Assembly: GCA_963677415.2 (NCBI GenBank)
Contig: CAXXFJ010000033.1
Coordinates: 24,115-88,114 of the forward strand
Source of the DNA: Bacteroidales bacterium
Lineage (GTDB): Bacteria; Bacteroidota; Bacteroidia; Bacteroidales; JAQUTK01
Reading direction: 5' to 3'
Length of the DNA stretch: 64,000 nt
Position 1 is the first letter of the stretch; each line of letters opens with the position of its first letter. The notes beneath the pieces were generated by a model, which saw only the letters and a list, made by a program, of their open reading frames with translations, was not told where the DNA came from and did no database searches. Made by a program: the position numbers and the translations under genes. Positions 15,355 through 63,585 of the stretch are shown in pieces.

Positions 15355-17359
<2,005 letters not shown>

Positions 17360-47811: not shown

Positions 47812-48600
47812 ATGGAAAATATAGAGTTAGAGTCAGAAGAATCGTACAAAGTTCCTAATCTCGAAAAGGGAATTGCCGTCCTGGAACTTTTATCGGAACA
47901 ACCACTTGGAATGACACTGCTGGAGTTGAAAATGCAGCTGGAGATTTCACAGACAACTGCCTACCGGATATTGAATACCTTGGTTCGCTTGGGCTATCTC
48001 AACTACATAGAAACCGGAAAGAAATATAAACTTTCGCGTAAGATGCTGACCATAGGCTATCGTTCTATTCAAGAGCATAATATTATGGAAGTTGTATTGC
48101 CTAAATTAAGAGAACTGCGCGATATAGTGAAGGAAACAGTTTGCTTTGGCATTATGGGTGCTGAAAAAGGTCTTTTTATCGAACAGGCCATTGGTTCGCA
48201 TCCTTTTTGTTTTGTGTTGTCACCCGGCAAAGAGATTGACTTGCATTGCTCTGCTCCCGGCAAAGCTATCATGGCGTATCTCCCGGATAATATACGTAGC
48301 TCTTATCTTGCAAAAATGAAATACGAAGCGCACAATATCCGTACTATAACCAATGAAACAGACTATTTGAAGGAGTTGGAAAAAGTTCGCCGGCTTGGAT
48401 ATGCACTTGATATGGAAGAGGAACTTGGGGGGGTAGTTTGTATTGGTGCTCCTGTGTTTAGCTATGATGCTTATCCTTGTGGTTCTATTTGGTTATCAGG
48501 ACCTAAAGATAGATTACCGAAAGAAAAGATTCAACTGTTTGCAGCCCACTTGTTAGAGAGTACGCGTTCGGTTTCATTGGAGCTTGGATATAAAGATTAA
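47812..48600 (+). CDS. IclR-family transcriptional regulator
   Basis: 262 aa. The N-terminal wHTH is 'LEKGIAVLELLSEQPLGMTLLELKMQLEISQTTAYRILNTLVRLGYL'. A C-terminal effector domain follows. Confidence 0.85.
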   Translation: MENIELESEESYKVPNLEKGIAVLELLSEQPLGMTLLELKMQLEISQTTAYRILNTLVRLGYLNYIETGKKYKLSRKMLTIGYRSIQEHNIMEVVLPKLRELRDIVKETVCFGIMGAEKGLFIEQAIGSHPFCFVLSPGKEIDLHCSAPGKAIMAYLPDNIRSSYLAKMKYEAHNIRTITNETDYLKELEKVRRLGYALDMEEELGGVVCIGAPVFSYDAYPCGSIWLSGPKDRLPKEKIQLFAAHLLESTRSVSLELGYKD

Positions 48601-48632: not shown

Positions 48633-50420
48633 ATGAAAATAATACAAGGTCTCACCTTGACGACATTACTTCTGATTGCTGCGTTAATGATGAACTTTAC
48701 GCAGCTGAAAGAAGAAGTATATACGGAAACTCCGGTTTTTGTTACTGACATTAAAGTAGCAACTAATGAGGGTGTTTTTATGTCGCAAAAAGGTACAAAG
48801 AGCGTTGTGTTATATAAGAATGACTTTTCGGCGAAAGTTCAGGAATGGGTTTTCGATGAGACACCTACTGCCATTGCTGTTACTGACAAACTTCTTTTTG
48901 TGACAACTTTTGAAACAAAAGGGCTTTTGCACATCATTGATTTAACAACGAATAAAATTGCTGCTACCATTCCGGTTTCTTCCGGAGCAACTGCTCCAAT
49001 AGTAAATGCTGATCAAAGCAAGGTATATGTGTGCAATCAGTTTGCTAATACGATTTCGGAAATAGATATTAAAAAGCAAAAAGAGCTCCGTACGGTAAAA
49101 GTGCTCCGCGAACCCCGGGCGGCAATTATCAGCCCTGACGGCAAGCTGCTGTATGTAGCCAATTATCTGCCTGCTCAACGTGCTGATGTGGATACTATAG
49201 CGGCATGTATCTCGGTAATTAATCTATCCAACTTCAAGAGGATTAAAGATATTCAATTGACGAATGGCAGCAATGCAGTACAAAGTATCTGTTTGAGTCC
49301 CGATGCGAACTATTTATTTGCCACCCACAATTTGGGCCGTTTTCAGGTTCCAACTAGTCAGCTTCAGCAAGGATGGATGAACACCAGTGCCATGAGTGTC
49401 ATTAATATTCACACTCAGATATGCGAAGGTGCAGTGTTGCTCGATGAACCGGATCGTGGTGCGGGTGGTCTTTGGTCGGTAGAATGTACTGCGCAGGAGA
49501 TCATTGTTTCGCAATATGGTACACATGAAATAAGTGTGATTGATTATCCGGCATTCATTGAAAAGTACAACAGCCTGACTGATAAATCGACATTAAATTA
49601 TGACTTGCGCTTCTTGAATGGAATCCGCCGTCGTGTTCCGCTTATTGGTAATGGTCCCCGGGCATTTGCCATTTCCGGCGATAAGGTAATCATCCCTACC
49701 TACTTTTCCGATACGGTAAATGTATATGATCTGAAAACCCAATCGATTGAGGCTTTTTCTTTAGTCAAAAACAGAGTTGAGACGGATGCTCAAAAAGGAG
49801 AGCGTTATTTCAATGATGCCAATTTTTGCTATCAAAACTGGCAATCCTGTAACGGCTGTCATCCAGGCGAAGCCAGGACAGACGGCATGAACTGGGATTT
49901 GATGAACGACGGCATTGGCAACGCCAAAAACTGCAAAAGCATGATCCTGGCTCATGAGACGCCACCTAGTATGATCTCAGGAATTCGTGAACACGCGGAA
50001 TTAGCTGTTCGCAAAGGATATAATCTTATTCAGTTTTATGAAATTCCGGAATCTAAGGCAATCTGTGTAGATACCTATCTTAAGTCACTGAAACCGGTGC
50101 CAAGTCCCTATCTGGTGGATGGGAAACTATCAGAGAAAGCAGTCAGTGGTCGTCAGGTCTTTGAAAAGTTTGATTGTACCAGATGTCATTCAGGTTCTTA
50201 TTATACGGATATGAAAATGCATCGGATCGGTGACAGTATAGAATTTGAAAAAGGCTGGGACACTCCAACTCTGATTGAAGTGTGGCGTACTGCTCCCTAT
50301 TTATTCAATGGAAAGGCAAATACGCTCAAAGATGTTTTTGAGAAGTACAAACACGGAATTGATAAGAAGATTACTGAGAAGGAGTTGGACGAACTGGTCG
50401 AATATGTAAACTCTCTCTAA
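48633..50420 (+). CDS. Exported YVTN-type beta-propeller fused to a di-haem cytochrome c peroxidase/MauG-like domain
   Basis: 595 aa with a signal peptide. The propeller repeats are 'SKVYVCNQFANTISEIDI' and 'GKLLYVANYLP'. Two CxxCH sites are present, CNGCH and CTRCH. Confidence 0.65.
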   Translation: MKIIQGLTLTTLLLIAALMMNFTQLKEEVYTETPVFVTDIKVATNEGVFMSQKGTKSVVLYKNDFSAKVQEWVFDETPTAIAVTDKLLFVTTFETKGLLHIIDLTTNKIAATIPVSSGATAPIVNADQSKVYVCNQFANTISEIDIKKQKELRTVKVLREPRAAIISPDGKLLYVANYLPAQRADVDTIAACISVINLSNFKRIKDIQLTNGSNAVQSICLSPDANYLFATHNLGRFQVPTSQLQQGWMNTSAMSVINIHTQICEGAVLLDEPDRGAGGLWSVECTAQEIIVSQYGTHEISVIDYPAFIEKYNSLTDKSTLNYDLRFLNGIRRRVPLIGNGPRAFAISGDKVIIPTYFSDTVNVYDLKTQSIEAFSLVKNRVETDAQKGERYFNDANFCYQNWQSCNGCHPGEARTDGMNWDLMNDGIGNAKNCKSMILAHETPPSMISGIREHAELAVRKGYNLIQFYEIPESKAICVDTYLKSLKPVPSPYLVDGKLSEKAVSGRQVFEKFDCTRCHSGSYYTDMKMHRIGDSIEFEKGWDTPTLIEVWRTAPYLFNGKANTLKDVFEKYKHGIDKKITEKELDELVEYVNSL

Positions 50421-50434
50421 AATATAAAATATAG

Positions 50435-51589
50435 ATGAAGAACCTGAATCTGATGATAGAGTATTTTGCAGCAGAAGCTAAACAAAGCTTCTGTGAAACG
50501 GTGCAAGCAATCATCGATCAGGTGAATGAAGGCCAACGAACACCTATTCGTTTCGTTTTTTTCGGCATTCCGCAAAATAATGAAGAGTATTCGAAAGAGT
50601 TTTCGCTCATAAAGGAACGCATACGAACGAAATTTGGCAAGCATATGCCGGTGGTGAGTTATGTAGCTCAAAAACCACTTTGCAATAATGCATTGGTGCT
50701 CGAAGCACATTGGAGTGTGGTGACGGCGGACAAAGATGTTCATCACAAGCAGGTTGATGGTGTGGATTATTTGACTGTTGAAGATGAGATATCTAAAAAG
50801 CTCTCTCTGGGTGGAATAACTTCTGTAAACAATCAGTATTCAATCTTCGATCAGTCAGTTGAAATATTTGAAAAGATAAAGAAGATCTTTGAATTGGAGA
50901 AAATGCCGGTTGACTCAATCGTTCGTCAGTGGAATTACATTGCTGATATAACGAAAGTAGTGGATGGCAAACAGCATTATCAGGAATTTAATAATGCCCG
51001 TTCGCAATTTTATGGTTTGACCTCGTGGCCAAAAGGATATCCGGCAGCTACAGGTATTGGTACGTATACTGGGGGCGTTGTGGTGGAAGTGTTTGCCGTA
51101 AAACCAAAATCACATCGGGTAGAAATCGTTCCACTGGACAATAAGCTTCAGGTGCCTCCTCATGCTTACTCGCAAGAGGTGCTGGTAGGTGATAAGGATA
51201 GTGCTAAGAAGAGCTGCACAACCCCAAAGTTTGAACGGGGGAAAGTGCTTTATATTAAGCCGGAAGCTCTGGTGTATATTTCGGGAACGGCTGCCATCAG
51301 GGGCGAAGAGAGTCTGGATGGAGTGGGAGCCGGGAGACAAACGATTGCTACTCTTGAGAATATAAACTATTTGAGATCTCCGGAGAACTTGCGTAATGCG
51401 GGTGTAAAGTGTGAAATTGCGCCCGGGATGAAAAGTCTTCGGGTCTATCTCAAGGAAAGTTCCTATTATGAGGAGGTCAAACAAGTGGTTGATAGTATGA
51501 TGCCTGATGTGCCTTCTGTGTATTTGCTGGGTGATATTTGTCGCGATAATTTATTGATAGAAATAGAAGGAATAGCAACTAATTTTTAA
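50435..51589 (+). CDS. RidA/YjgF-fold protein, FkbO/Hyg5 chorismatase-like
   Basis: 384 aa with no signal peptide. The C-terminal 'LVYISGTAAIRGEESL...RQTIATLENI' resembles the FkbO/Hyg5-RidA signature. The assignment is from memory only. Confidence 0.4.
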   Translation: MKNLNLMIEYFAAEAKQSFCETVQAIIDQVNEGQRTPIRFVFFGIPQNNEEYSKEFSLIKERIRTKFGKHMPVVSYVAQKPLCNNALVLEAHWSVVTADKDVHHKQVDGVDYLTVEDEISKKLSLGGITSVNNQYSIFDQSVEIFEKIKKIFELEKMPVDSIVRQWNYIADITKVVDGKQHYQEFNNARSQFYGLTSWPKGYPAATGIGTYTGGVVVEVFAVKPKSHRVEIVPLDNKLQVPPHAYSQEVLVGDKDSAKKSCTTPKFERGKVLYIKPEALVYISGTAAIRGEESLDGVGAGRQTIATLENINYLRSPENLRNAGVKCEIAPGMKSLRVYLKESSYYEEVKQVVDSMMPDVPSVYLLGDICRDNLLIEIEGIATNF

Positions 51590-51599
51590 TTGTATAAAG

Positions 51600-52289
51600 A
51601 TGAAAACGAAATTTATTTTAACGGCTGTCTTGACCCTCTTGTTGTGTGTATATGGGATCAGCCAGACAACGGCGCCCGCCCAAACAGCAACGCCCGCTAA
51701 AACTGCGGTCAAACAGAAAGCATTGTATGAAAAGAAATATACCAATGCTGATTATTACACCAACGGCACATTCAATCAGGAGGTTGCTTTAAAAGCAGTA
51801 TTGGATATGTTTGCTTTTTATGGTGTCGAATACACCGATTTCATGAAGAAGAATATGTTTGTTTCGGACTTTAATCTTGGTGATTTCGAGAATATTGGCA
51901 TGGCAGGTATTTTCTGGGTAAATGATGCCGAGCATAATATGTTTGGACATGAGATTTATTTGCTGCCCAACCAAATGATTGCCGAACATGCGCATGTTGC
52001 CACCACGTATCCCGCCAAACATGAAACCGGATTGGTTCGCTATGGAAGCGGCTATAATTTTAGTATTGGTGAGCCCACCTTGAATGCGCCTAAGTTGCCA
52101 GCAAGCCAAAAAGACTTTATCACTTTAAAGCATTTTGAGCCAAAGAAAGTGGGAGAGATGATTTTACTTTCAAAGATTGAGAGCAAACATTTTCTTTTTG
52201 CCGGGGATAATGGTTTAATCGTGACCGAGTTTGGTACTTATCATGACAACGCCGGACTACGGTTCACCAATCCGAAAGTTAAATTCTAA
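51600..52289 (+). CDS. Exported cupin, D-lyxose/D-mannose isomerase-family-like
   Basis: 229 aa with a signal peptide. 'VSDFNLGDFENIGMAGIFWVND' and 'HEIYLLPNQMIAEHAHV' resemble the lyxose-isomerase cupin core. Confidence 0.5.
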   Translation: MKTKFILTAVLTLLLCVYGISQTTAPAQTATPAKTAVKQKALYEKKYTNADYYTNGTFNQEVALKAVLDMFAFYGVEYTDFMKKNMFVSDFNLGDFENIGMAGIFWVNDAEHNMFGHEIYLLPNQMIAEHAHVATTYPAKHETGLVRYGSGYNFSIGEPTLNAPKLPASQKDFITLKHFEPKKVGEMILLSKIESKHFLFAGDNGLIVTEFGTYHDNAGLRFTNPKVKF

Positions 52290-52329: not shown

Positions 52330-53015
52330 ATGAAGATCAAAACTATTTCAACAGCATTATTAGTCGTTATGTTAAGCGTTACATGCGTGAGTTGTACGCC
52401 AACAACTAAAACCGACAATTCATCCGATGCTACATCGGAAGTAAATGGCTATACCAAGAAGTACACCAACGCCGACTTTTACACCAATGGGGTGTTTAAT
52501 AAAGACACAGCACTAAAAGCATACTTAGACATGTTTGAATATTATGGGGTTCCTTATACCGACTTGATGAAAAAGGATATGTGGGTGACTGATTTTAACC
52601 TTGGTGACTTCGAACATGTGGGGATGGGTGGTATCTTTTGGGTGAACGATTCTATTCACAACTATTTTGGTCATGAGATCTATTTATTGCCTAACCAAAT
52701 GATTGTGGAACATGCTCACATGCCAACTCCGGGTCATGCTGCCAAGTTTGAAAGCTGGTTGGTACGTAATGGCAGTTGCTACAACTATAGCATTGGTGAC
52801 TCAACAGCAAATCCACCTCAACTTCGGAAAGTCAAAAAGGTTTTATCACCGTTTCTCACTTTGCTGAAATGAAGGTGGGTGATATTCTTCCATTGGCTCA
52901 GATTGAATCCAAGCACTTCCTGTTTGCCGGTGACAATGGACTTATTGTGACCGAGTTTGGATCTTATCACGATGGTGCCGGTCTTCGTTTTACCAACCCA
53001 AGCGTAAAGTTTTAA
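52330..53015 (+). pseudogene. Paralogous exported (lipoprotein-type) lyxose-isomerase-like cupin, -1 frame change
   Basis: The lipobox is 'LSVTCVSC'. ORF 52330-52872 diverges from paralogue 51600-52289 after 'NPPQL'. The next frame, open from 52800, reads 'ESQKGFITVSHFAEMKVGDILPLAQIESKHFLFAGDNGLIVTEFGSYHDGAGLRFTNPSVKF*' and restores homology. The junction is at 52822-52827 (cttcgg). Confidence 0.65.
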
Positions 53016-53056: not shown

Positions 53057-53401
53057 ATGAGAAAATTAAATCATTTCGGAATTCCGACTCAGACCGTACA
53101 AGCTGGTGAGAATTATGCTGAAGGACTGAAAGTGCATTTGACTGACTTTAGCAAGAGTGAAAACAAGATTGAGTTTCTTCGTTTTGAAGAAGGTTCGTGC
53201 ATGCCGGATATTATACAGAAGGTGGCACATATAGCGTATGAAGTTCCTGATATGAAAGCTGCACTTGAAGGAAAGAATGTAATCGTCGAACCGATGGAAG
53301 GTGGTCCCGGTTTGCAAATTGCTTTCATTGTGGAAGAAGGAATTCCTATCGAACTGATGTGTTTTGATAGTAGTGTACAAAGACCCCAATCAGCTTATTA
53401 A
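53057..53401 (+). CDS. VOC (glyoxalase/bleomycin-resistance/dioxygenase) family small protein
   Basis: 114 aa. 'LNHFGIPT' at the N-terminus and 'VAHIAYEV...IAFIVEEGIPIELM' fit paired beta-alpha-beta-beta-beta modules. Confidence 0.55.
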   Translation: MRKLNHFGIPTQTVQAGENYAEGLKVHLTDFSKSENKIEFLRFEEGSCMPDIIQKVAHIAYEVPDMKAALEGKNVIVEPMEGGPGLQIAFIVEEGIPIELMCFDSSVQRPQSAY

Positions 53402-53420
53402 TCCATAATAAACAAGACCT

Positions 53421-54440
53421 ATGACAACAAAAATCATGAATAAGTTCATCAATGAACCAGCAAATATTACAGCAGAGTTACTGGAAGGTTATGTAATGGC
53501 GTATCGCGACATAGTAACTCTTGATGGTGAAAACACCGTAGTGCGTGTGCATGCAAAATCGCAGGACAAAGTGGCCATCGTAACATTAGGCGGTGCCGGT
53601 CACGAACCTGCATTAAGCGGTTTTGTCGGCGAAGGAATGCTGGATTGTTCGGTGGTTGGCGACGTATTTGCAGCACCCGGTGCACAGCGTTTATATCAGG
53701 CTTTGCTGAAATTTAAACGTGAAGCAGGCATTTTATTGGTGGTTTTGAACCATTCCGGCGATGTGATGAGTGCTAATATGGCTTGTCAGCTGGCAGAACG
53801 TGCGGGTATTAAAGTGAAGCAAATAGTTACACACGAAGATATCAGTGCCGGTTTGAATACACCGGATAGTGATCGTAGAGGATTGGCCGGTTGTATTCCA
53901 CTTTACAAGATTGTAGGTGCAGCTGCTGAGGATGGTAAATCGTTGGATGAGATTATTGAGATAGGTGAACGTTTCAATCAACAAATTGCAACGCTGGCTG
54001 TGGCAATGGGTTCTTGTACACATCCGCAAAACGGTGTTACGATCGCCCAGTTGGCTCCCGGTGAGATGGAAATCGGAATGGGACAACACGGTGAAGGTGG
54101 TGGCGGACGTCAGATGCTTATATCGGCTGATGATACGGCTGAGAAAATGGTGACGCAACTGATGGCTAAGATTCAACCCAAAGCCGGCGACAAAGTGCTG
54201 TTGTATATCAATGGAGTAGGAGCAACTACCATGATGGAAATGAATATCATTTTCCGCAAAGCATGTCAGGTGTTGGAAGCAACCGGAGCAAGTGTGGTGG
54301 AAAGCCGTATCGGCGAGATGCTGACTGTGCAGGAATCTGCCGGTTTTCAGATGTTGTTGGCTAAACTGGATGCTGATCACGTTGAACTGTTGAAAGATAG
54401 AAAAGCAAATTCACCTTTTTGGATAACCATTGGCAAATAA
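53421..54440 (+). CDS. dhaK: Dihydroxyacetone kinase, DhaK (substrate-binding) subunit
   Basis: 339 aa. 'TLGGAGHEPALSGFVGEGMLDCSVVGDVFAAP' is the canonical DhaK motif. Confidence 0.9.
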   Translation: MTTKIMNKFINEPANITAELLEGYVMAYRDIVTLDGENTVVRVHAKSQDKVAIVTLGGAGHEPALSGFVGEGMLDCSVVGDVFAAPGAQRLYQALLKFKREAGILLVVLNHSGDVMSANMACQLAERAGIKVKQIVTHEDISAGLNTPDSDRRGLAGCIPLYKIVGAAAEDGKSLDEIIEIGERFNQQIATLAVAMGSCTHPQNGVTIAQLAPGEMEIGMGQHGEGGGGRQMLISADDTAEKMVTQLMAKIQPKAGDKVLLYINGVGATTMMEMNIIFRKACQVLEATGASVVESRIGEMLTVQESAGFQMLLAKLDADHVELLKDRKANSPFWITIGK

Positions 54441-54443
54441 GTG

Positions 54444-55079
54444 ATGGAAAAGCTGACAATTGATGATTTCAAAAGAATGATTGCCGTGGCTCTGGATCAT
54501 ATAACAGCCCGTTCGGATGAGTTTTCGGCTCTGGATGCTGTTATTGGTGACGGCGATCATGGCACGGCAATCGTTCAGGCATTAAAAGCGGTTACAGAAG
54601 CAGCCGATAGAGGTGTAGAGTTCAAAGCTATGCTTGACGATGTGGGTTTTAATGTGATGATGCAAACAAGTGGTTCGACCAGCACATTGCTCGGTGGTTT
54701 CTTCCTCGGAATGAGCGATTCCGTAACAGGTACCGAACTCACATCAGCCGAAGTGGTGGCGATGTTTCGTGGTGCTTTAGAGGGCGTGAAGAAACAAACA
54801 AAAGCTTTAAAAGGGGATAAAACTATGATGGATGCGTTGATTCCTGCTATCGAAGCAATGGAAGCTTGTACGTCAACTGATATTAAGAAAATAATGCGTG
54901 CCGGTGCTGATGCTGCTTTGCAAGGTGCATCTGAAACGATACAAATGAAAGCCAATTTTGGCCGTGCCCGTAATTATGGCGAAAAGTCAATAGGATATGC
55001 AGACTCAGGTGCTGCTTCATGGGCCTGTATGTTTGATTCATTTGCAACGGCATTAGAGACAAATGGAGTGGACAACTAA
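54444..55079 (+). CDS. dhaL: Dihydroxyacetone kinase, DhaL (nucleotide-binding) subunit
   Basis: The ATG lies 4 nt after the dhaK stop. The 'LDAVIGDGDHGTAI' motif is present. About 211 aa. Confidence 0.9.
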   Translation: MEKLTIDDFKRMIAVALDHITARSDEFSALDAVIGDGDHGTAIVQALKAVTEAADRGVEFKAMLDDVGFNVMMQTSGSTSTLLGGFFLGMSDSVTGTELTSAEVVAMFRGALEGVKKQTKALKGDKTMMDALIPAIEAMEACTSTDIKKIMRAGADAALQGASETIQMKANFGRARNYGEKSIGYADSGAASWACMFDSFATALETNGVDN

Positions 55080-55128
55080 TGTCTCAACAAATAATTAGAG
55101 TAACTATTCATTTACAACTTTAGGAATA

Positions 55129-56001
55129 ATGGCAGATTTAGATGATTTAAGAGAAGGTAATAAATTTGGAATTGGACAGGCTGTTCAAAATCAATCGTTT
55201 CATATTAAGGGAGCAGACAATTTATCGTGGGGAAAGAAAGACCGTCTGACACGAATCTTTAATCCGAAGTCGGGAAGAACTGTCATGCTGGCTTTCGATC
55301 ATGGCTTTATTATGGGACCAACGTCGGGTGTGGAGAGAATCGACATAACAATTGCTCCATTGATGGAATATGCTGACTGCTTGATGTGTACACGAGGTAT
55401 TTTGCAATCATCGGTACCAGCCAATACCAACAAACCAATTTGCTTGCGTTCAGATGCCGGCACTACCATCCTGACTGAATTAAACGATAATGTAGTCATT
55501 GATGTTGAAGATGCTATTCGCCTGAATGTATCTGCTATGGCTGTGATGCTGGCCATTGGTGATCCTGAGATGGAAGCTAAAACCATTGCCAATCTATTTA
55601 GAGCTGTTGATTCAGGCTCAAGATATGGTATTCCGGTCATGGGTGTTACCGCAGTGGGAAAAGATATGGCTCGTGATGCACGTTACTTTGGTTTGGCGTC
55701 ACGTGTTTGTGCTGAGAATGGAGCCAATATCGTGAAGACATATTACTGCGAGGGTTTTGAGAATGTCGTGGCTTGCTGTCCGGTGCCTATTGTAATAGCA
55801 GGTGGTAAGAAGTTGCCGGAAAGAGATGCATTGGAGCTGTGCTATAAGGCTATCAATGATGGTGCAGCCGGTGTAGATATGGGGCGCAATGTGTTTCAAT
55901 CTGAAGATCCGATAGCGATGATTCAGGCTGTTCATGCGTTGGTGCACGAGAATTTGTCTGTTGATCAGGCTTTTCAGATGTTTAATGATTTGAAGAAATA
56001 A
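55129..56001 (+). CDS. lsrF: LsrF-type class I aldolase-fold enzyme (3-hydroxy-5-phosphonooxypentane-2,4-dione thiolase-like)
   Basis: 290 aa. 'MADLDDL..G', 'RIFNPKSGRTVMLAFDHGF..GPTSGVERIDITIAPL..YADCLMCTRGIL', 'IVKTYY' (Schiff-base Lys) and 'CPVPIVIAGGKKLPERDALE' track my recollection of E. coli LsrF along the whole length. Confidence 0.75.
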   Translation: MADLDDLREGNKFGIGQAVQNQSFHIKGADNLSWGKKDRLTRIFNPKSGRTVMLAFDHGFIMGPTSGVERIDITIAPLMEYADCLMCTRGILQSSVPANTNKPICLRSDAGTTILTELNDNVVIDVEDAIRLNVSAMAVMLAIGDPEMEAKTIANLFRAVDSGSRYGIPVMGVTAVGKDMARDARYFGLASRVCAENGANIVKTYYCEGFENVVACCPVPIVIAGGKKLPERDALELCYKAINDGAAGVDMGRNVFQSEDPIAMIQAVHALVHENLSVDQAFQMFNDLKK

Positions 56002-56002
56002 G

Positions 56003-56923
56003 ATGAAAATGAGATTGCTCCTTGTTTGCTTTGCATTGTTTGGCTTAAATGCTGCTCAATCGGCAGAAACCTATCTTTTAATAGCAGGATCGGGTACTAA
56101 AGACGTGTCCATCTTTCAAAAATCGACGAAGAAGATCATTTGGAGTCATGATCTTGAAGCGGGTCAGGAATGCAACAGTGTTGCCATGAACAAGAAGGGT
56201 GAGGTTCTGTATTCTTATAAACAAGGAGCCAAACTCATCTCACTCGATCATAAAGTGATCTGGGATTATACCTGTTCTGAAGGATCAGAGTTGCAGTTAG
56301 CATCGGTTTTACCGGATGGTGGATACTTACTTGGTATTTGTGGCCACCCGGCAAAAATAGTGGAGTTGGATAAATACGGAGTGGTTCGGAAAGAACTTTC
56401 TATAAATATCAATGTTCAAGCTCCGCATCAACAGTTTCGTAGAATCTCAAAAGCTAAAAACGGAAACTATATTCTTCCAATCTTAGAAACCAATGAGATT
56501 CTGGAAATTGACAAGAACGGGAAAGAGATAAACCGGTTGAATGTGGCTGCCGGCTGTTTTGCAGCCCTGGAACTGAAAGATGGTAATTTACTCGCTTCTG
56601 GTGGTGATTCACATCAATTTATGACAGTAAACCGACAAACAGGTGAGATATCAGGTCGTGTGACTCAGAATGATATTGAAGGTGTTTCTTTGCTGTATGT
56701 TGCTCAAATAAGGGTACTTGATAATGGCAATCTATTACTATGCAACTGGCAGGGACACAATCGTGAGGCTGGTGTAGATGAACCTCAACTTGTCGAAATA
56801 GATCGGGAGAATAAGGTCGTGTGGTCATTGAATGATAAAAAGAGTTTCGACAAAATCTCATCTGTTTTCATCATTTCTCCCGATAAATCATTTACTATTT
56901 TCCTCAAAAAACTTAATCGCTGA
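56003..56923 (+). CDS. Exported beta-propeller protein (PQQ/BamB-like repeats), unknown function
   Basis: 306 aa that starts 2 nt after the lsrF-like stop. It has a signal peptide and repeated 'G.(V/I)LW' type blades. Confidence 0.5.
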   Translation: MKMRLLLVCFALFGLNAAQSAETYLLIAGSGTKDVSIFQKSTKKIIWSHDLEAGQECNSVAMNKKGEVLYSYKQGAKLISLDHKVIWDYTCSEGSELQLASVLPDGGYLLGICGHPAKIVELDKYGVVRKELSININVQAPHQQFRRISKAKNGNYILPILETNEILEIDKNGKEINRLNVAAGCFAALELKDGNLLASGGDSHQFMTVNRQTGEISGRVTQNDIEGVSLLYVAQIRVLDNGNLLLCNWQGHNREAGVDEPQLVEIDRENKVVWSLNDKKSFDKISSVFIISPDKSFTIFLKKLNR

Positions 56924-56928
56924 TATCA

Positions 56929-59055
56929 ATGAAAAAAATCAACTTATTACTGGTAATTGCACTCATCGGTGGTCAAGCACTGATGGCTCTACCAACAAAG
57001 AAAATAGTTGCTTCCACTTGGACCAGTGCTGCGGCAGCTTATAAAGTGGAACTTCTTGCAAAGCAAAAGGCTGTAGGGTTTCCAATAGAATCGGGCGAAG
57101 TAAAGAAAGGTGAGTTAAAGAAGATTACAGCCAAAGTCGCTAATCTGGATTATATCGTACTGGTTGTCACCGCTAAGAAAGGTGAGAAGAAATGCAATGA
57201 TGCCATTTGGGTCAACGCCAAAGTCTATGAAAAAGATGGAAAAGCGATTAATATCAGTGACTTGAAAATTAGTGGCCAAGCAAAACTGAATCAAAATTCC
57301 GGCGAAAAAGAAGTTGTGATTAATAAAAACAAAGTCAGCAACTCGATTTTGTCAAGTACCAGTAAGTATATATATATTCCCTTGGATAAGAAGTATGTAC
57401 GCTTTGAATCTGAGATTGGTATAGATGACAATAGTAAAGATAGTACTGCCATTTTCAGAATTCAGAGCGAGAGTGGTCAGAAAGAATTCAACGAACTGTC
57501 TGAACGTTTTCCGGAAGATTGTAATGCTTTTTTTCCTCTTTGTCCGACTACAGGCCAGTGTTGGTTGTCAAATGGTACGGCAAATGAGGATGAGGTAATT
57601 ATAAAAGAACTTCTCAACCGGTTAAAAGAAAAAGTATATTTTAATGATGAATTGACCAAGATCGCCAGCCTTCCGGCAGCAAAACAAACAGAGGCTTATT
57701 TGTCACTTTTCAAAGATCTGTCAGATGTAATAAAGATTCAGTCTGAGGTGGACTGGATAAATATCGAATCCATTCAATTGGCTTTCGATGATATGAAGAA
57801 GAATGCATCGTTTAATGCCGCTGTCAATCAGGAAAAGTTAAACCAACTCAGCTCGTTGGTGAAAGCTGGTTTCGAGGGTCTTTGCATGAATAATAAGGAC
57901 GCTATTGCCCATGCAAGCAAAGCCATTGCACTTAAAAAAGAGATTCTGTTAGCCAATCCTTTGTTTGATATGGATAAGATCATTGTAGGAAAATATAAAG
58001 TAGGATACAATGCGCGATCGGTGAATGTTTCTTCATTAGGCACAGAGCCTGCCAACTGGAGCTGCTTAATGTCTGCCAATAGGAAAGGCTTTAAAGCCGA
58101 GATTGCTGAACTTTCCAATTTACGTGGGGAATTGCGCTCAACCACCCTCTTCAAAGCACAAAACAACTCCTCCCTTCCGCATATTCGCTTAAACTGGAAT
58201 GCGGATCATATTTTGTTTACCATGTCAAATGCAGATGGCTTGTGGCAGGTTTATGAAGTGGATATGGAGGGTAAAAATCTCCGCCAGGTAATCAAATCAA
58301 CAGAACCGGATCTGGAGTTCTTTGATGCGACTTATCTGCCCAATGGCAAAATTATAGCTGTGTCCAATATAGGATATTTAGGAGTACCTTGTGTAGATGG
58401 TAGTGATATTGCAGGGAACATGGTGTTATATGATCAAAATACGGATGATCTTCGCCGTATCACTTTTGATCAGGAAAGCAATTGGGGACCTATCGTAATG
58501 AACAACGGCCGTGTCATGTACACACGTTGGGAATATACCGATCTGACTCACTATTTTTCGCGTATTGTGATGCATATGAATCCTGATGGAACCGAGCAAA
58601 AAGCCTTGTACGGAAGCGGTTCGTATTTCCCCAATAGTACATTTGATATCAAACCACTGCCAGGCAACGGAACTCGTTTTGTTGGAATTATTTCAGGCCA
58701 TCACGGTGTAGTTCGTGCGGGTCGTATGCTGATTTTCGATCCATCAATTGCTCGGAAAAATGCAGATGGGATTGTTCATGAATTCCCTTATCGCAACCGT
58801 AAAGTGGTGCCAATCATTAAGGATGAATTAGTGAATGGTGTATGGCCACAATTTATTAAGCCGTATCCATTGAATGAAAATTATTATCTTGTTACTGCAA
58901 AGCTGACTCCGGATGGTTTATGGGGGATATATTTGGTGGATACATTTGATAACCTTACCCTGTTGAAAGAAGCGGAAGGAGAAGGCTATATTCATGCTAC
59001 CCCGGTAACAAAAACAGCTGTACCTCCAATAATCCCGGATAAAATCAAACTTTAA
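56929..59055 (+). CDS. Exported NPCBM-like domain + helical region + TolB/hydrazine-synthase-alpha-like beta-propeller protein
   Basis: 708 aa with a signal peptide. 'KYIYIPLDKKYVRFESEIGIDDNSKDSTAIFRI' is NPCBM-like. The propeller segment is 'GRVMYTRWEYTDLTHYFSRIVMHMNPDGTEQKALYG'. Confidence 0.5.
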   Translation: MKKINLLLVIALIGGQALMALPTKKIVASTWTSAAAAYKVELLAKQKAVGFPIESGEVKKGELKKITAKVANLDYIVLVVTAKKGEKKCNDAIWVNAKVYEKDGKAINISDLKISGQAKLNQNSGEKEVVINKNKVSNSILSSTSKYIYIPLDKKYVRFESEIGIDDNSKDSTAIFRIQSESGQKEFNELSERFPEDCNAFFPLCPTTGQCWLSNGTANEDEVIIKELLNRLKEKVYFNDELTKIASLPAAKQTEAYLSLFKDLSDVIKIQSEVDWINIESIQLAFDDMKKNASFNAAVNQEKLNQLSSLVKAGFEGLCMNNKDAIAHASKAIALKKEILLANPLFDMDKIIVGKYKVGYNARSVNVSSLGTEPANWSCLMSANRKGFKAEIAELSNLRGELRSTTLFKAQNNSSLPHIRLNWNADHILFTMSNADGLWQVYEVDMEGKNLRQVIKSTEPDLEFFDATYLPNGKIIAVSNIGYLGVPCVDGSDIAGNMVLYDQNTDDLRRITFDQESNWGPIVMNNGRVMYTRWEYTDLTHYFSRIVMHMNPDGTEQKALYGSGSYFPNSTFDIKPLPGNGTRFVGIISGHHGVVRAGRMLIFDPSIARKNADGIVHEFPYRNRKVVPIIKDELVNGVWPQFIKPYPLNENYYLVTAKLTPDGLWGIYLVDTFDNLTLLKEAEGEGYIHATPVTKTAVPPIIPDKIKL

Positions 59056-59075
59056 TACACACAAACTTATTGATC

Positions 59076-60980
59076 ATGTTTAAAATAAGACTTCTGTTCA
59101 TTGCATGTATAACTTCGCAATTTCTTTCTGCTCAAGGAGAGAAAGAACGTGCCAAAAATGCTGTCGTATTTATCCAGGATATTTACGAAGGTGAAGGCTT
59201 GAAAGGTGTACCTCGAGGAACAGTCAAAGCCATACGCATATTGAATTACGAGTTTGCATATATAAAATCACCCTCTAACAATAATGCTCAAGGTGTTCAA
59301 AGTGGTTGGGATATTAAGCGCTCATTAGGCGAAGTGCCTGTTGAAGCAGATGGATCCGTTCTGTTTAATGTTCCATCGAATACGCCAATTTCATTTCAAC
59401 CGCTTGATGCTGAAGGTAGAGCTCTTCAATTAATGCGTAGCTGGACAACCGGAATGCCGGGAGAAGTGATCTCTTGTACCGGTTGTCATGAAAATCAAAA
59501 CCAGATACCAATGCCTAAGCGTTCCATTGCTTCAGGTAAAGCTCCTTCTTCATTGATCAAACCAGTGGGTGGGGTACGACCATTTACATTTGAAATGGAA
59601 GTGCAGCCTGTGCTCGACCGTGCTTGTATTGCTTGTCATAATGGAAATGGTACTATCTCAGATCTTACAGGTGGTCGTTTTGATGAATCGACTAAGTATG
59701 GCAAAAGTTACCTTAATCTTCATCCCTATGTTTTTCGTCAAGGTCCCGAAGCTGAAATGGAAGTGCTGAATCCGTATGAATATCATGCTTCTGTGAGTCC
59801 ACTGATCCAAATGCTGAAGAAGGGGCATCATAATGTGCAACTCACAGACAAAGAATGGCGTACTTTATATAACTGGATTGATTTTAATGCTCCTTTTAAC
59901 AGTACATTTCAGGCCGTTGATTATAAAGGTGTTGATCAAATCAAACGAAGGATGGAGCTGTATGATAAATATGGTGGAAATTCCAGTATCGATTGGCAAG
60001 GCGAGATCGTTGCTTATGCAGATTATCTGAAAAAGCAACCTAAAATTGTTCCAGTTAAACCAGTTGAGCTGGTTGCAAAATCAGTGAAAGAAGTGAAACT
60101 GAAAGGTTGGCCATTTGGTGTCGATGATGTAACCCGGATGTTGGCAAAAGAAAGGGAAACAAAAAAAACAATTGATCTTGGAGATAGTATAAAAATGAAC
60201 TTTGTTCGTATCCCTGCCGGAAAGTTTGTGATGGGTAAGAATGGAACTTCTGATTATTCACCGGCGAGTATTGCCAAAATTGATAAGGGATTTTGGATGG
60301 CAGAAATAGAGGTGAGCAACGAACAAATGCGTGCCATCTTACCAGAACACAATAGCCGTTTTATACAGCAACAATGGAAAGATCACGTCGGACCTGGATA
60401 TATTGCAAACAGTCCGAAACAACCTGCCATTCGTATGACATGGAACGAAGCCATGGATTATTGTAAAAAGCTAAGTGAGAAAACTGGTTTGAAGTGTACC
60501 TTGCCAACAGAAACACAATGGGAGTGGGCATGTAGAGCAGGATGTGAAACTGACTTTTGGTATGGAAATTTGAATACTAGTTTTGCTCCTTATGAAAATA
60601 TGGCAGATAAACAGCTAAATAAATTGGCAGTTAGTGGTGTTGATCCACAGCCTCAATCTGAAAATTGGTTTTGGTATAAATATTATACGTATCAACCCAA
60701 GGATAATACTGTCGACGATGGTTCATTCTTAACAGTGCAAGGTGCAAAATATCAGTCGAATGCTTTTGGGTTGTATGATATGCATGGAAATGTGTCTGAG
60801 TGGACTCGCTCCGATTATGTGCCCTATCCTTTGAAGAAGAATGCGACTAATGATCTGAAAGTAGTAAGAGGAGGTTCGTGGATTGATCCACCCAAGACTT
60901 CTACCAGTTATTTCCGTAAGTCTTTTTTGCCTTGGCAGAGTGTTCATAATGTAGGTTTCCGGGTGATTATTGAAGAGTAA
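59076..60980 (+). CDS. Exported protein with two c-type haem sites and a C-terminal FGE-sulfatase (SUMF1/EgtB-like) domain
   Basis: The ATG at 59076 gives the signal peptide MFKIRLLFIACITSQFLSAQ. CxxCH sites are CTGCH and CIACH. FGE-type motifs are 'WEWACRAG', 'GLYDMHGNVSEWT' and 'VVRGGSW'. Confidence 0.65.
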   Translation: MFKIRLLFIACITSQFLSAQGEKERAKNAVVFIQDIYEGEGLKGVPRGTVKAIRILNYEFAYIKSPSNNNAQGVQSGWDIKRSLGEVPVEADGSVLFNVPSNTPISFQPLDAEGRALQLMRSWTTGMPGEVISCTGCHENQNQIPMPKRSIASGKAPSSLIKPVGGVRPFTFEMEVQPVLDRACIACHNGNGTISDLTGGRFDESTKYGKSYLNLHPYVFRQGPEAEMEVLNPYEYHASVSPLIQMLKKGHHNVQLTDKEWRTLYNWIDFNAPFNSTFQAVDYKGVDQIKRRMELYDKYGGNSSIDWQGEIVAYADYLKKQPKIVPVKPVELVAKSVKEVKLKGWPFGVDDVTRMLAKERETKKTIDLGDSIKMNFVRIPAGKFVMGKNGTSDYSPASIAKIDKGFWMAEIEVSNEQMRAILPEHNSRFIQQQWKDHVGPGYIANSPKQPAIRMTWNEAMDYCKKLSEKTGLKCTLPTETQWEWACRAGCETDFWYGNLNTSFAPYENMADKQLNKLAVSGVDPQPQSENWFWYKYYTYQPKDNTVDDGSFLTVQGAKYQSNAFGLYDMHGNVSEWTRSDYVPYPLKKNATNDLKVVRGGSWIDPPKTSTSYFRKSFLPWQSVHNVGFRVIIEE

Positions 60981-61015: not shown

Positions 61016-63427
61016 ATGAAAAACAAATGGATGCAACAAGCGAAAGCTCAAATAAATATCCCGGGGGTATTTATTTGTACGGCAATTTCTGTACTCTCTT
61101 TTTTCCCCTTTTCTGTAAAGGCTCAGCTTAATTCATCGGTAAAGAAATCCGATTCGTCATGGATTAACGTTTCCGAAAGTCTTGGATTTCCATTAGGAGG
61201 AATAGGAACAGGTTATTCTGCTTTTGGAAGATATGGCTTTGTGCGGGTAAACTTTGACGGACGACCATACGATGGATTAGATGTAAGTCAATGGGAGTAT
61301 AACGCTGAGTATGTGCTTCGTAATGACACTTCATTTCAGAAAGTGGAGGAACAATGGATGAAAGCTCAGAAAGCTGATCCTCCGCTGGAGGCCAGTGCTC
61401 TTGAGAAGTTGAAGCGAAAATATGAGAATGCCGCAAGAGTTCACAAGATGGCTACTGCTCCGGAAGGTTTTGTACAGTCTTCTTATGGATTCACGCTGTC
61501 TGAAGGAAATAAATCTTACATTGTTCAAACCACTCCTGCAAACTGGAAAAAAGAGGCCACACCGTTTGAGAGTGCAAAAGTGTCGGCGTGCCTGCCTAAG
61601 GGCTTGGCTGTGTTTTCCGATAAAGAGGCAAAGCTTCAAGTGAGTGTCAGAGCATTCACTCCTTTGATACCTCATGATTTGGAGAGTTCGACCTTGCCGG
61701 TTCAGGTCTATGATGTGAAGGTCAAAAATACAGGAAAAACGGCCCGACAACTGAGTCTTTGCTTAGAGAATGGTACTCCTGGTACATCAGCATCTGATCG
61801 TACTGTGTTCACTTTTTCTTCTGGCGAGATGGTGTTTGCTGCAAATACTGGTACTGCATCGGAGAAAGGTGTCTCCGTAAAGCTTTCACTGGCACCAGGA
61901 GGTGAAGTGACAAAAAGGTTTTATATCTCCTGGCACTTTCCAAAGATAGACGGTTATAAAAGATATTATACACTGGCAATGCCAAATGCATCGGCTGTAA
62001 TAGATAAAGCCATGAAAGATGCTTCTCAATGGAGCAACAAAATTGATGCATGGCATAATTCTGTTCAAGTTCCTGCTTACTTAAAACGTGTTTGGTTTGG
62101 CTCTTTGGCTTCTATTATGACTTCTACATTCATGACGACAGATCCATATTTCTTTGAAATAGAAACACCTCATGGCTGTCTGAATACCATGGATGTTTGT
62201 GTTTATTCTGGATGGGTTTACATGATTAATTGGCCAGAACTTGAACGAATGGATATGAGTCAATTTTTTAAAGCTACACCCAAAACAGGAGAGAATGCCG
62301 GATTGATTATGCACGCCCTTTGGAATGATGCGGCTCATTATGTGGAAGAACCCACCTTTATGTGCCGCATGCGCCGGGATGCTCTTTGGTTTAACGATCC
62401 AGCATTTACCCGCGAAGGTTTTGATGTCTCTGTCCTGGCTGCCAATCGTGTTTACAATCTTGACAATTATGAAAATCTCATTCAAAGTAAGCATGGTAAT
62501 CAGAGTTATGATGCCTGGAAGATGCCTGGTGTAAGTAGTTATGTGAACTCAGCTTGGGTGTATGGTCTTGATGCATTGAAATCAATGGCTGCCGGATTGG
62601 GTGAAACGAATGTGATAGTCGGCTCTATTCCTCTTGACGAGATGCTTACAAAGGCACGTGCCAGCTATGACAGACTATTGTGGAATCCACAGACAAAGGC
62701 CTGGAATCTTTTTTATCGCACGGAAGGTTCTGCTCAGGAAAATACGCCTGAAACATTATTCACCGATCAACTTTTTGGACTTTGGGTAGCAGCGATCGAT
62801 CGTAATGCTAAGGAGGTATTGCCATCAGAGAAAATAAAGTTAGCACTTAACTCGCTATACATTAACAATATGGTTGAAGATAAGACACAAAATTTCCGTG
62901 GTTGGGTCAATGGCATGAAACCAAACCGTGTTCCTGATTATACGATTAATGGCTACCATGCACGAACATGCTGGTTTGGCGCACAGATTAATCTCAGTTC
63001 GCTGCTCGGATATATGGGCAATGAAGTTGCATCGATTGATATCATGCGTTCCATAGATATGAGTTTGAAAAACAATCATTTTGCTGCAGGAGAATGGAAT
63101 GGATCTATTAATGCAAAAGGTGAAGTACTTCCCTTACCGGAAGAAACGGCTAAGGATACTCCGCGTTTTGCACCCTATCCCCGCTACAAATCTTCTTGGG
63201 AATATCTTATTCGCCTTCTTGGTTTGCAGATGGATGAAAAGGCACTTTATCTGCAACCTTTCAAAACAGTGGATTTTCGTTTCGGGGATATACAACTCGC
63301 CGGAAAGAAAATGAATATCACCGTTGAAGCAGGTTGGAAGCGTGTCTTGGTAGATGGTAAGAAAGTAAGTTTGCCCGTGAGCATTCCAAGGACAAATGAG
63401 AGTGTGAGAGTAGAGTTTCTAAAATAA
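61016..63427 (+). CDS. GH116-like glycoside hydrolase (N-terminal beta-sandwich + (alpha/alpha)6 DUF608-type domain)
   Basis: 803 aa with a signal/TM segment. 'LGFPLGGIGTGYSAFGRYGF' is the GH116 N-domain signature. Confidence 0.55.
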   Translation: MKNKWMQQAKAQINIPGVFICTAISVLSFFPFSVKAQLNSSVKKSDSSWINVSESLGFPLGGIGTGYSAFGRYGFVRVNFDGRPYDGLDVSQWEYNAEYVLRNDTSFQKVEEQWMKAQKADPPLEASALEKLKRKYENAARVHKMATAPEGFVQSSYGFTLSEGNKSYIVQTTPANWKKEATPFESAKVSACLPKGLAVFSDKEAKLQVSVRAFTPLIPHDLESSTLPVQVYDVKVKNTGKTARQLSLCLENGTPGTSASDRTVFTFSSGEMVFAANTGTASEKGVSVKLSLAPGGEVTKRFYISWHFPKIDGYKRYYTLAMPNASAVIDKAMKDASQWSNKIDAWHNSVQVPAYLKRVWFGSLASIMTSTFMTTDPYFFEIETPHGCLNTMDVCVYSGWVYMINWPELERMDMSQFFKATPKTGENAGLIMHALWNDAAHYVEEPTFMCRMRRDALWFNDPAFTREGFDVSVLAANRVYNLDNYENLIQSKHGNQSYDAWKMPGVSSYVNSAWVYGLDALKSMAAGLGETNVIVGSIPLDEMLTKARASYDRLLWNPQTKAWNLFYRTEGSAQENTPETLFTDQLFGLWVAAIDRNAKEVLPSEKIKLALNSLYINNMVEDKTQNFRGWVNGMKPNRVPDYTINGYHARTCWFGAQINLSSLLGYMGNEVASIDIMRSIDMSLKNNHFAAGEWNGSINAKGEVLPLPEETAKDTPRFAPYPRYKSSWEYLIRLLGLQMDEKALYLQPFKTVDFRFGDIQLAGKKMNITVEAGWKRVLVDGKKVSLPVSIPRTNESVRVEFLK

Positions 63428-63464: not shown

Positions 63465-63517
63465 GATCACAAAAGAAGAAGCCACGCAAAATTTGCATGG
63501 CTTCTTCTTTTGTGATC
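63465..63517. terminator. 20-bp-stem hairpin, bidirectional terminator overlapping the tRNA 3' end
   Basis: The stem is gatcacaaaagaagaagcca / tggcttcttcttttgtgatc with a 13-nt loop. The last 5 nt of the stem are the tRNA acceptor 3' end. Confidence 0.7.
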
Positions 63518-63585
63518 CGCTTGGGGCTCGAACCCAAGACCCCAACATTAAAAGTGTTGTGCTCTACCAACTGAGCTAGCGAATC
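63513..63585 (-). tRNA. tRNA-Lys (anticodon UUU), 73 nt, CCA not encoded
   Basis: The reverse complement folds by hand as follows. Acceptor GATTCGC/GCGGATC (one G-U pair); D-arm GCTC-AGTTGGTA-GAGC; anticodon arm CAACA-CTTTTAA-TGTTG; T-arm TTGGG-TTCGAGC-CCCAA; discriminator A. Confidence 0.9.

Follow-up and report, generated by a model that had tools for sequence, protein, structure and literature searches.

A split DhaK/DhaL kinase encoded with an LsrF-type enzyme and a VOC protein in Bacteroidales: a candidate non-canonical route into the LsrF reaction

The DNA analysed here is a stretch of 64,000 nucleotides from a Bacteroidales bacterium (GenBank assembly GCA_963677415.2, contig CAXXFJ010000033.1, positions 24,115 to 88,114 of the forward strand); the whole of this stretch is called the window and positions are counted from its first letter. 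At 53057-56001 the window carries four co-directional open reading frames (ORFs) that encode a small protein of the VOC (glyoxalase-fold) superfamily, the DhaK and DhaL subunits of a split kinase and an LsrF-type protein, with intergenic gaps of 0-49 bp and with the start of DhaL abutting the stop of DhaK. A preliminary description made from the letters alone had proposed that these genes provide a non-canonical route into the reaction of LsrF, and this remains the best reading of the locus. The motifs on which that proposal was built were all recovered, GGAGHEP at residues 57-63 of DhaK, GDGDHG at residues 36-41 of DhaL and KTYY at residues 203-206 of the LsrF-like protein. Its treatment of the four genes as a free-standing unit had to be given up, as the block is embedded in a conserved operon with genes for an exported cupin, haem proteins, a beta-propeller and a chorismatase-like protein.

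The conserved block and its enzymes

The DhaK sequence was used as a query against one genome per GTDB species and at least 554 relatives were found, of which the best 80 loci, with DhaK identities of 66-96%, were examined; these best 80 come nearly all from Bacteroidales and Marinilabiliales. The counts below refer to a set of 84 related loci, 72 of them long enough for the block to be judged and 50 flanked by 9 kb or more on either side (the long-flank loci). In 71 of the 72 judgeable loci the VOC, DhaK, DhaL and LsrF genes adjoin one another in this order and on one strand, so the arrangement is not a matter of chance. Cultured carriers among the loci are Bacteroides stercorirosoris, B. nordii, Parabacteroides goldsteinii, P. 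distasonis, P. acidifaciens, P. hominis and others, and the habitats represented are human, bird, ruminant and termite guts as well as sediments. Two loci (L027 and L043) contain the four genes alone, flanked by unrelated genes that gave no clue to the substrate, which indicates that the block can exist as a self-contained unit. The VOC, DhaK, DhaL and LsrF-like proteins are a conserved module that is predicted to be cytoplasmic. Judged by its distribution, at least several hundred Bacteroidota species, cultured Parabacteroides and Bacteroides included, would supply an LsrF orthologue with substrate through a kinase family other than that of the Lsr pathway.

The last protein of the block, of 290 aa, scores 467.6 bits on the NCBIfam model of the LsrF thiolase (NF006081, cutoff 297), 184.8 bits on the model of ADH synthase and 105.2 bits on that of archaeal class I fructose-bisphosphate (FBP) aldolase, and in Pfam it gives a DeoC/LacD-type aldolase match. 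It aligns with E. coli LsrF (PDB 3gkf) over residues 1-286 at 58% identity; the alignment begins at residue 1, with MADLDD in both proteins, and the N-terminal extension of about 50 residues ahead of the barrel is kept. In the 2009 structure of E. coli LsrF the Schiff-base lysine is Lys203, the general acid/base is Asp57 and the phosphate ligands are His58, Gly226, Gly227, Gly253 and Arg254, while Asp251, beside the lysine, is specific to LsrF, its close homologues having Ala at this position and a catalytic Tyr that LsrF does not have (PMC2728841). The equivalents of D57, H58, K203, G226, G227, D251, M252, G253 and R254 are all kept in the window protein, as they are in every one of 79 orthologues. 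In pairwise alignments GVDMGRN of the window protein stands against GVAVGRN in the Methanocaldococcus jannaschii ADH synthase (MJ0400) and GIAVGRN in the Thermoproteus aldolase, and the catalytic Tyr of MJ0400 sits in an insertion that is missing from the window protein and E. coli LsrF alike.

The likeness to LsrF along the full length, including the KTYY lysine, which the preliminary description had pointed out, is thereby borne out, and when the LsrF, FBP aldolase and ADH synthase profiles are compared LsrF is the best match, so the protein does not place with the plain FBP aldolases. Assignment as a plain FBP aldolase or as an ADH synthase was considered and is ruled out by the NF006081 score, Asp251 and the missing Tyr. 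In sequence the protein is of the LsrF type, not FbaB or ADH synthase. With MJ0400 it has in common the fold family and, as predicted here, a substrate with a methyl ketone at one end and an end like that of dihydroxyacetone phosphate (DHAP), whereas the window protein scores 121 bits against MJ0400 and 369 against LsrF, does not have the catalytic Tyr and carries Asp for Ala beside the Schiff-base lysine. Thiolase rather than aldolase chemistry is what these residues suggest.

The two kinase subunits keep their catalytic residues. DhaK (Pfam Dak1, 5.5e-96) has His61, Asp114 and His223, the last aligned with the hemiaminal His, invariant in 85 sequences, and DhaL (Pfam Dak2, 8.7e-37) has the Asp32/Asp37/Asp39 triad invariant in 80. 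Both score below the curated equivalog models, DhaK with 286.7 on TIGR02363 (cutoff 406.25) and DhaL with 128.2 on TIGR02365 (cutoff 138.3). In a search of 1.84 billion representative sequences the full-length relatives of DhaK were 54-59% identical and the next full-length matches 41% and 39%, which sets DhaK in a discrete sequence subfamily; below it lie mixed split and fused enzymes at 32-39% identity, an outgroup that gives no decision between ATP and a phosphoenolpyruvate:sugar phosphotransferase system (PTS) as the source of phosphate.

Enzymes of the DhaK type bind the carbonyl of the substrate as a hemiaminal and phosphorylate the adjacent CH2OH. Beside the catalytic Asp, residues 110-118 of the window DhaK (53748-53774) read NHSGDVMSA instead of the widespread NY(T/S/A)GDxxNF, and beside the hemiaminal His, residues 219-227 (54075-54101) read GMGQHGEGG instead of G(I/V)HGEPG; the subfamily consensus is NH(S/A/E/N)GD(V)MSA and GQHGE(G/A)G, and the motifs are altered in all 85 orthologues. 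Since the altered residues lie beside the Asp and the His that contact the substrate, they hint at a substrate other than dihydroxyacetone.

Among the known systems nearest to the kinase are the PTS-dependent DhaK/DhaL/DhaM systems of E. coli and Lactococcus lactis, with which the window kinase has in common the split Dak1 and Dak2 domains, the catalytic His/Asp/His and the Mg-binding Asp triad; Dak1 and Dak2 lie on two separate ORFs in the window and at all loci, none of which has a fused single chain. An ordinary dihydroxyacetone or glycerol kinase, fed by a PTS relay encoded elsewhere and with the LsrF-like gene as an unrelated neighbour, would account for this resemblance, which exceeds that to the ATP-dependent Citrobacter enzyme, and for the presence of every catalytic residue. 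Such a kinase is very improbable here, given that neither subunit reaches its curated cutoff, that all 85 orthologues carry changed motifs next to the catalytic Asp and His, that DhaM was found in none of the 84 loci in a phylum from which the PTS is reported absent, and that LsrF and VOC genes are linked to the kinase in 71 of 72 loci. Unlike the PTS-dependent systems, the window subunits are linked to LsrF and not to glycerol dehydrogenase or DhaR, and no DhaM is present at the loci.

The search for PTS and Lsr partners covered the window ORFs of at least 150 aa and the ORFs of the cluster, among which no PTS/DhaM, FGGY or ABC-transporter domain was found; no DhaM-like gene was present in any of the 84 related loci, whole genomes not having been searched. 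The statement of the preliminary description that the PTS is generally lacking in Bacteroidota agrees with a published phylogenomic survey in which it was absent from Bacteroidetes (PMC2405797). Because the phylum is reported to be without a PTS, the phosphoryl donor of the split DhaKL would most simply be ATP; as the subunits themselves are similar to the PTS type, ATP use is argued only from the missing PTS partner. The donor would then probably be the same as that of the ATP-dependent dihydroxyacetone kinase (DAK) of Citrobacter freundii and, if the proposed pathway is correct, the DAK fold would be acting on ketoses beyond dihydroxyacetone. LerK and DerK, which act on erythrulose in Mycobacterium smegmatis, also belong to the ATP-dependent DAK family. 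These enzymes are single fused polypeptides, unlike the split kinase of the window, whose similarity to the Citrobacter enzyme is lower than that to the PTS type. We know of no split DhaK/DhaL that has been characterised from a phylum without a PTS.

The 114-aa protein at the head of the block had no match in Pfam or NCBIfam. A profile of its homologues, which are about 105 aa long, matches Clostridium glyoxalase I (E about 2e-4), and its AlphaFold model (pLDDT 92.9) gave 3oa4, 6bu2, 2qh0, 3hdp and 6qh4 as top Foldseek matches with probability 1.00, the matches including the glyoxalase-family protein BH1468, methylmalonyl-CoA epimerases and glyoxalase I. The earlier naming of this protein as VOC is upheld by both the profile and the fold match, and on its model it is a member of the VOC superfamily with the paired beta-alpha-beta-beta-beta fold. 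His6, Glu39, His58 and Glu93 are invariant and form a putative metal-ligand set; Glu99 does not vary at the loci and is nearly invariant in the wider set of homologues. VOC enzymes bind a metal at which enediolate or enolate intermediates are stabilised. By analogy, such chemistry would suit a ketol shift of the type that interconverts 4,5-dihydroxy-2,3-pentanedione (DPD) and its isomer HPD, or an epimerisation at a carbon between two carbonyls, and the VOC protein is a candidate cytoplasmic ketol isomerase or epimerase.

The Lsr pathway of E. coli and Salmonella, which processes autoinducer-2 (AI-2), offers the closest parallel, with an LsrF orthologue as the terminal enzyme and with the same logic of kinase, isomerase and thiolytic release of DHAP. 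To our knowledge the chemistry of LsrF has been characterised only in this quorum-quenching operon. The window system differs in that DhaK/DhaL replaces the FGGY kinase LsrK, in that a VOC protein and an exported cupin are the isomerase candidates, and in that exported haem proteins are encoded in the operon. No LsrR was found, and co-occurrence with the Lsr operon genes (lsrK, lsrG, lsrACDB, lsrR) was not seen in the window ORFs scanned or in the 84 loci; no LsrG-like gene lies in the conserved operon, ORFs below 150 aa outside it, the size class of LsrG (about 96 aa), not having been screened. The earlier claim that dhaM, lsrK, lsrG and an lsr transporter are missing from the window thus stands for dhaM, lsrK and the transporter among the scanned ORFs, and for lsrG within the operon, LsrG-sized ORFs elsewhere in the window being outside the screen.

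The surrounding operon and its exported proteins

The block normally lies within a conserved operon of 10-13 genes, which in the window forms part of a same-strand array (Table 1). Companion genes were counted in the 50 long-flank loci: the beta-propeller/di-haem protein and the cupin lipoprotein are each present in 48, a protein of about 1300 aa with the HZS_alpha middle domain, two CXXCH motifs and an FGE/PvdO-like domain (the alpha-like protein) in 47, the chorismatase-like gene in 42, the Mal s 1-like propeller in 41 and the IclR gene, adjoining the cluster, in 11. A gene for the cytochrome c maturase CcsBA adjoins the cluster in 53 of the 84 loci, and beyond the operon set no further gene family is conserved across them. 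The order of the genes varies by lineage and the set is kept, the alpha-like gene lying between the cupin and VOC genes in Parabacteroides and after the propeller gene in Bacteroides. A scan for promoters and terminators, which does not model Bacteroides promoters, gave counts at background level.

Table 1. Genes of the same-strand array of the window, from the IclR gene (47812) to the GH116 hydrolase (63427)
Feature	Position	Strand	Evidence or remark
IclR-family transcriptional regulator	47812-48600	+	First gene of the array; Pfam HTH_IclR, IclR_C
Exported beta-propeller and di-haem protein, fused homologue of hydrazine synthase beta-gamma	48633-50420	+	hydrazine_BC; 5c2v; two CXXCH
FkbO/Hyg5 chorismatase-like protein, RidA-type fold, cytoplasmic	50435-51589	+	Pfam FkbO_Hyg5-like_N, Ribonuc_L-PSP
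Exported cupin (signal peptide or lipoprotein), D-lyxose/D-mannose isomerase family	51600-52289	+	Profile, Foldseek
Second cupin isomerase copy, frameshifted	52330-53012	+	ORF 52330-52872, rest in other frame to ~53012
VOC (glyoxalase-fold) protein, 114 aa	53057-53401	+	Immediately upstream of DhaK at all loci
DhaK subunit (Dak1 domain), 339 aa	53421-54440	+	Dak1 match, distinct subfamily
DhaL subunit (Dak2 domain, nucleotide-binding), 212 aa	54441-55079	+	Dak2 match
LsrF-type class I (Schiff-base lysine) enzyme, predicted CoA-dependent thiolase, 290 aa	55129-56001	+	NF006081
Exported Mal s 1-like beta-propeller	56003-56923	+	Pfam Mala_s_1-like 4.5e-48
Exported N-terminal half of hydrazine-synthase-alpha-like protein	56929-59055	+	Weak NPCBM carbohydrate-binding match 5.8e-07
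Exported C-terminal half of alpha-like protein, HZS_alpha middle domain and FGE/PvdO-like domain	59070-60980	+	Two CXXCH
GH116-family glycoside hydrolase, lineage-specific neighbour	61016-63427	+	Pfam GH116 N-terminal and catalytic domains

Export was judged by a simple N-terminal hydropathy test on the orthologues. Signal-like N-termini were found in 50 of 52 cupins, 57 of 61 propellers, 36 of 38 alpha-like and 19 of 22 beta-gamma-like proteins, and were rare in the remainder (chorismatase-like 0/40, VOC 0/79, DhaK 0/84, DhaL 1/79, LsrF 1/78). The cupin, the propeller and the alpha-like and beta-gamma-like proteins are therefore predicted to be exported, and the chorismatase-like protein, VOC, DhaK, DhaL and LsrF to be cytoplasmic.

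This context bears on the narrow form of the earlier reading, in which DPD from the gut lumen would be phosphorylated by DhaKL, isomerised by the VOC protein and cleaved by LsrF, the cluster serving to quench AI-2 and the exported neighbours being unrelated to it. The strong LsrF orthology and the two loci with the block alone are in keeping with such a function, and a phylogeny-corrected survey has tied a Bacteroidetes lsrF homologue to gut colonisation and suggested AI-2 degradation (PMC6084841). Nevertheless, in 47-48 of 50 loci the genes of the block and those for the exported isomerase and haem proteins are interleaved within one operon of varying order, which speaks for a single common pathway. 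Sediment and termite-gut lineages also carry the cluster frequently, and no AI-2 binding protein or transporter is among the conserved families of the 84 loci. AI-2 quenching of this kind is distinctly unlikely.

The haem proteins are homologues of the subunits of hydrazine synthase. The beta-gamma-like di-haem protein has a signal-like N-terminus and two CXXCH motifs that were read directly in the translation, and it matches PDB 5c2v in chain B (beta, 7e-19) and chain C (gamma, 1.9e-15). The C-terminal half of the alpha-like protein is matched by Pfam HZS_alpha (5.7e-35) and FGE-sulfatase (6.4e-38) and, among PDB entries, by PvdO (1.1e-12) and hydrazine synthase alpha (2.5e-5); its N-terminal half had no PDB sequence match. 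The protein is fused in most relatives and encoded by two genes in the window and in the closest relative (L005), the split junction lying at 59040-59110 in the window and 15610-15690 in L005, and each half has its own signal-peptide-like start. The cutoffs of the hydrazine synthase models are not reached (34.9 versus 800, and 82.6 versus 1250 for the beta-gamma-like protein on NCBIfam hydrazine_BC), and by sequence the haem proteins are hydrazine synthase homologues, not hydrazine synthase. All three subunit homologues are co-encoded in fermentative Bacteroidales. FGE carries a catalytic cysteine pair, and a catalytic FGE is doubted for the alpha-like protein, as no such pair was read in its C-terminal stretch (by eye, without formal alignment).

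The arrangement recalls that of anammox hydrazine synthase and its homologues outside the anammox bacteria, where genes related to the alpha middle domain and to the beta and gamma subunits likewise occur together. Unlike the anammox enzyme, the alpha-like protein of the window has FGE/PvdO-like and NPCBM-like domains, and its host is a fermentative member of the Bacteroidales. In a 2025 study, co-located alpha and beta-gamma homologues outside anammox bacteria were used to define putative complexes; in the passages searched they are given no function and their linkage with DhaKL and LsrF is not mentioned, and the words 'dihydroxyacetone', 'FGE' and 'sulfatase' have zero occurrences in the main text (PMC12758564).

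The cupin belongs to the D-lyxose/D-mannose isomerase family and is another candidate for a ketol isomerase. Its profile matches PDB 7nzo (2.5e-22) and 2y0o (7.8e-17), Foldseek gives 7nzp (E 4e-15, target TM 0.82-0.86, 29% identity), and of the H-x-H...E...H ligand set H130, H132 and E142 are invariant and H197 nearly invariant. In the window the gene is duplicated in tandem, the second copy being C-terminally truncated by a frameshift near 52830 with its missing end encoded in another frame; this frameshifted copy is the orthologue of the single L005 isomerase (87% identity) and is the ancestral copy.

An isomerase of this family next to a kinase and an enzyme of aldolase fold could also be read as a classical route for a rare or deoxy sugar, in which the cupin would convert an aldose to a 2-ketose, DhaKL would act as a ketose 1-kinase and the LsrF-like protein as a CoA-independent aldolase giving DHAP and an aldehyde. 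For example, a compound like 6-deoxy-5-ketofructose 1-phosphate would yield DHAP and methylglyoxal, and the VOC protein would detoxify or isomerise the 2-oxoaldehyde. This route draws on the presence of the cupin, its metal ligands intact, at 48 of 50 loci, on the match of the VOC model to glyoxalase I, on the class I aldolase fold of LsrF and its kinship to ADH synthase, which handles 6-deoxy-5-ketofructose 1-phosphate, and on the sodium:solute symporter and GH130-like genes after the block at some loci and the rhamnulose-1-phosphate aldolase gene at one. It would parallel the known routes for deoxy sugars, those for L-fucose and L-rhamnose and the DHAP shunt for 5-deoxyribose, which likewise consist of an aldose-ketose isomerase, phosphorylation of the 2-ketose at C1 and release of DHAP, although the enzyme families differ at each step, the window isomerase is exported, and those routes use a class II aldolase, whereas the window lyase is of the LsrF type (class I, and CoA-dependent in E. 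coli). The same features count against a CoA-independent aldolase in the window: Asp251 is present and the aldolase Tyr missing, and the LsrF score is far above those of the aldolase and ADH-synthase models. In addition, the cupin is exported in 50 of 52 orthologues while kinase and lyase are cytoplasmic, so the three do not form a simple cytoplasmic trio, and the haem proteins are left unexplained. A route of this kind is considered unlikely.

The chorismatase-like protein matches the PDB chorismatases 5ag3 (3.8e-21) and 4bps (6e-14). Its gene is missing from L005, in which DhaK is 96% identical to that of the window, and it is an accessory member of the operon; enol-ether hydrolase chemistry of this protein could open a furanone or an unsaturated sugar.

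The genes that follow the block differ between lineages and are possible clues to the substrate. There, 12 loci have a GH130 mannoside-phosphorylase-like gene, 8 a sodium:solute symporter gene and 4 an MFS transporter gene; in 6 loci a hybrid two-component sensor is encoded near the block. In Tannerellaceae and Parabacteroides (L019, 13601-16517, and relatives) the symporter and GH130-like genes stand directly after the cluster, where a Bacteroidales metagenome-assembled genome has a rhamnulose-1-phosphate aldolase gene (L004, 15572-16399) and the B. stercorirosoris group a gene of the DAHP-synthase family (L012, 17695-18501). The GH116 neighbour of the window is also present at L005 and, on the opposite strand, at L004.

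A candidate two-compartment pathway

LsrF forms its Schiff base at the ketone beside the CH2OP of phosphorylated HPD (P-HPD, CH3-CO-CHOH-CO-CH2OP), the acetyl group is transferred to CoA and DHAP is left. Unphosphorylated HPD has an end like dihydroxyacetone, on which a kinase of the DhaK type could act to give the LsrF substrate in a single step. The first step of the proposed route would thus be phosphorylation by the split DhaKL of the CH2OH beside a carbonyl in a small hydroxy-diketone, candidates being a 1-deoxy-pentodiulose (CH3-CO-CHOH-CO-CH2OH), its 2,3-dione isomer or a close deoxy-ketosugar analogue. The VOC protein, presumably metal-dependent, would perform an enediol isomerisation of the LsrG type, or an epimerisation, before or after phosphorylation: DPD, the 2,3-dione isomer, is glyceraldehyde-like at its diol end and could be phosphorylated first and isomerised afterwards. 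Either order of steps needs one ketol isomerase, for which the cytoplasmic VOC protein is the natural candidate. Finally, the LsrF orthologue would form a Schiff base through Lys203 and pass the acyl group to CoA, the products being DHAP and acetyl-CoA or another short acyl-CoA. Substrate, phosphoryl donor, order and direction of the steps, the roles of the exported proteins and the part of the VOC protein as a substitute for LsrG are all inferred from sequence and gene context.

In its general form, that is, ATP-dependent phosphorylation by DhaKL of a hydroxy-diketone of the DPD/HPD type or a deoxy-ketosugar analogue, followed by cleavage with LsrF and CoA to DHAP and acetyl- or acyl-CoA, the proposal is held tentatively, with a likelihood that comes a little short of even. 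Several points weigh against it. In PDB comparisons both kinase subunits resemble the ATP-dependent Citrobacter enzyme less than they do the PTS-dependent proteins of Lactococcus and E. coli, no transporter is conserved in the operon among the 84 loci, no obvious source of DPD/HPD-type compounds would call for haem proteins, and an aldose-ketose isomerase also fits the classical sequence of isomerase, kinase and aldolase in sugar catabolism.

The exported cupin and haem proteins suggest that the compound arises outside the cytoplasm from a sugar, and the operon context argues that the substrate is made from something outside the cell and is not simply scavenged AI-2. The exported cupin, the haem proteins and the Mal s 1-like propeller would probably generate or condition the substrate there from a sugar-derived precursor. 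As a speculation, a (deoxy)aldose might first be oxidised at C4 and then undergo aldose-ketose isomerisation, and the resulting 2,4-diketose would have the shape that the module needs. A complete two-compartment pathway, in which the exported haem proteins and cupin would turn a glycan-derived (deoxy)sugar into a dicarbonyl 2-ketose that DhaKL and LsrF convert to DHAP and acyl-CoA, is doubtful in this full form. If it were true, the module could also destroy AI-2 without LsrK or LsrG, and a first function would be provided for the hydrazine synthase homologues outside anammox bacteria.

The same enzymes could formally be run in the opposite direction, DHAP made by DhaKL being condensed with acetyl-CoA by a reversed LsrF and isomerised by the VOC protein to a DPD-like molecule independently of LuxS. 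Beyond the formal reversibility of the steps and the presence of the enzymes nothing speaks for this: there is no phosphatase in the cluster, the Claisen condensation is thermodynamically unfavourable, and the IclR regulator, the glycoside hydrolase neighbours and the exported isomerase look catabolic. Such a biosynthetic role is hardly credible, and the catabolic route into the LsrF reaction is preferred.

A full-text literature search, in which some queries were swamped by irrelevant matches, returned no account of the pairing of DhaKL with LsrF or of this operon. The enzyme families are individually known. The searchable literature contains no description of their combination, of a split DhaKL that is independent of a PTS or of the link to hydrazine-synthase-like haem proteins. 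The catabolic route would be a candidate means for abundant gut Bacteroidales to consume AI-2 or related dicarbonyls derived from sugars or Maillard reactions, and the operon offers a genetically tractable handle on the role of hydrazine-synthase-like haem proteins outside anammox bacteria.

Other features of the window

Just upstream of the IclR gene, at 47064-47570, lies a gene for a Nim-like protein of the pyridoxamine-phosphate-oxidase fold (nitroimidazole reductase family, below cutoff), and the same is found in L005. The preceding region, 1-46982, is rich in genes for plant cell-wall degradation and encodes two GH106 rhamnosidases, three GH43 enzymes, a GH8, a GH10 with CBM6 and three GH2 enzymes, together with an MFS transporter and several esterases, one of them a BD-FAE feruloyl/acetyl esterase; in other species this set is not conserved beside the cluster. 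Two overlapping ORFs with esterase domains at 15358-16002 and 15935-17359 may be one gene broken by a frameshift. A gene for a HipA-family toxin kinase is located at 26310-27467, and a DDE transposase is encoded on the reverse strand at 34128-35299 as two adjacent ORFs (DUF4372 and DDE_Tnp_1 fragments), in a region of low GC content (32-36 kb, about 31-36%). The sole Rfam match in the window is a tRNA gene on the reverse strand at 63513-63585, which directly follows the GH116 gene and marks the end of the array.

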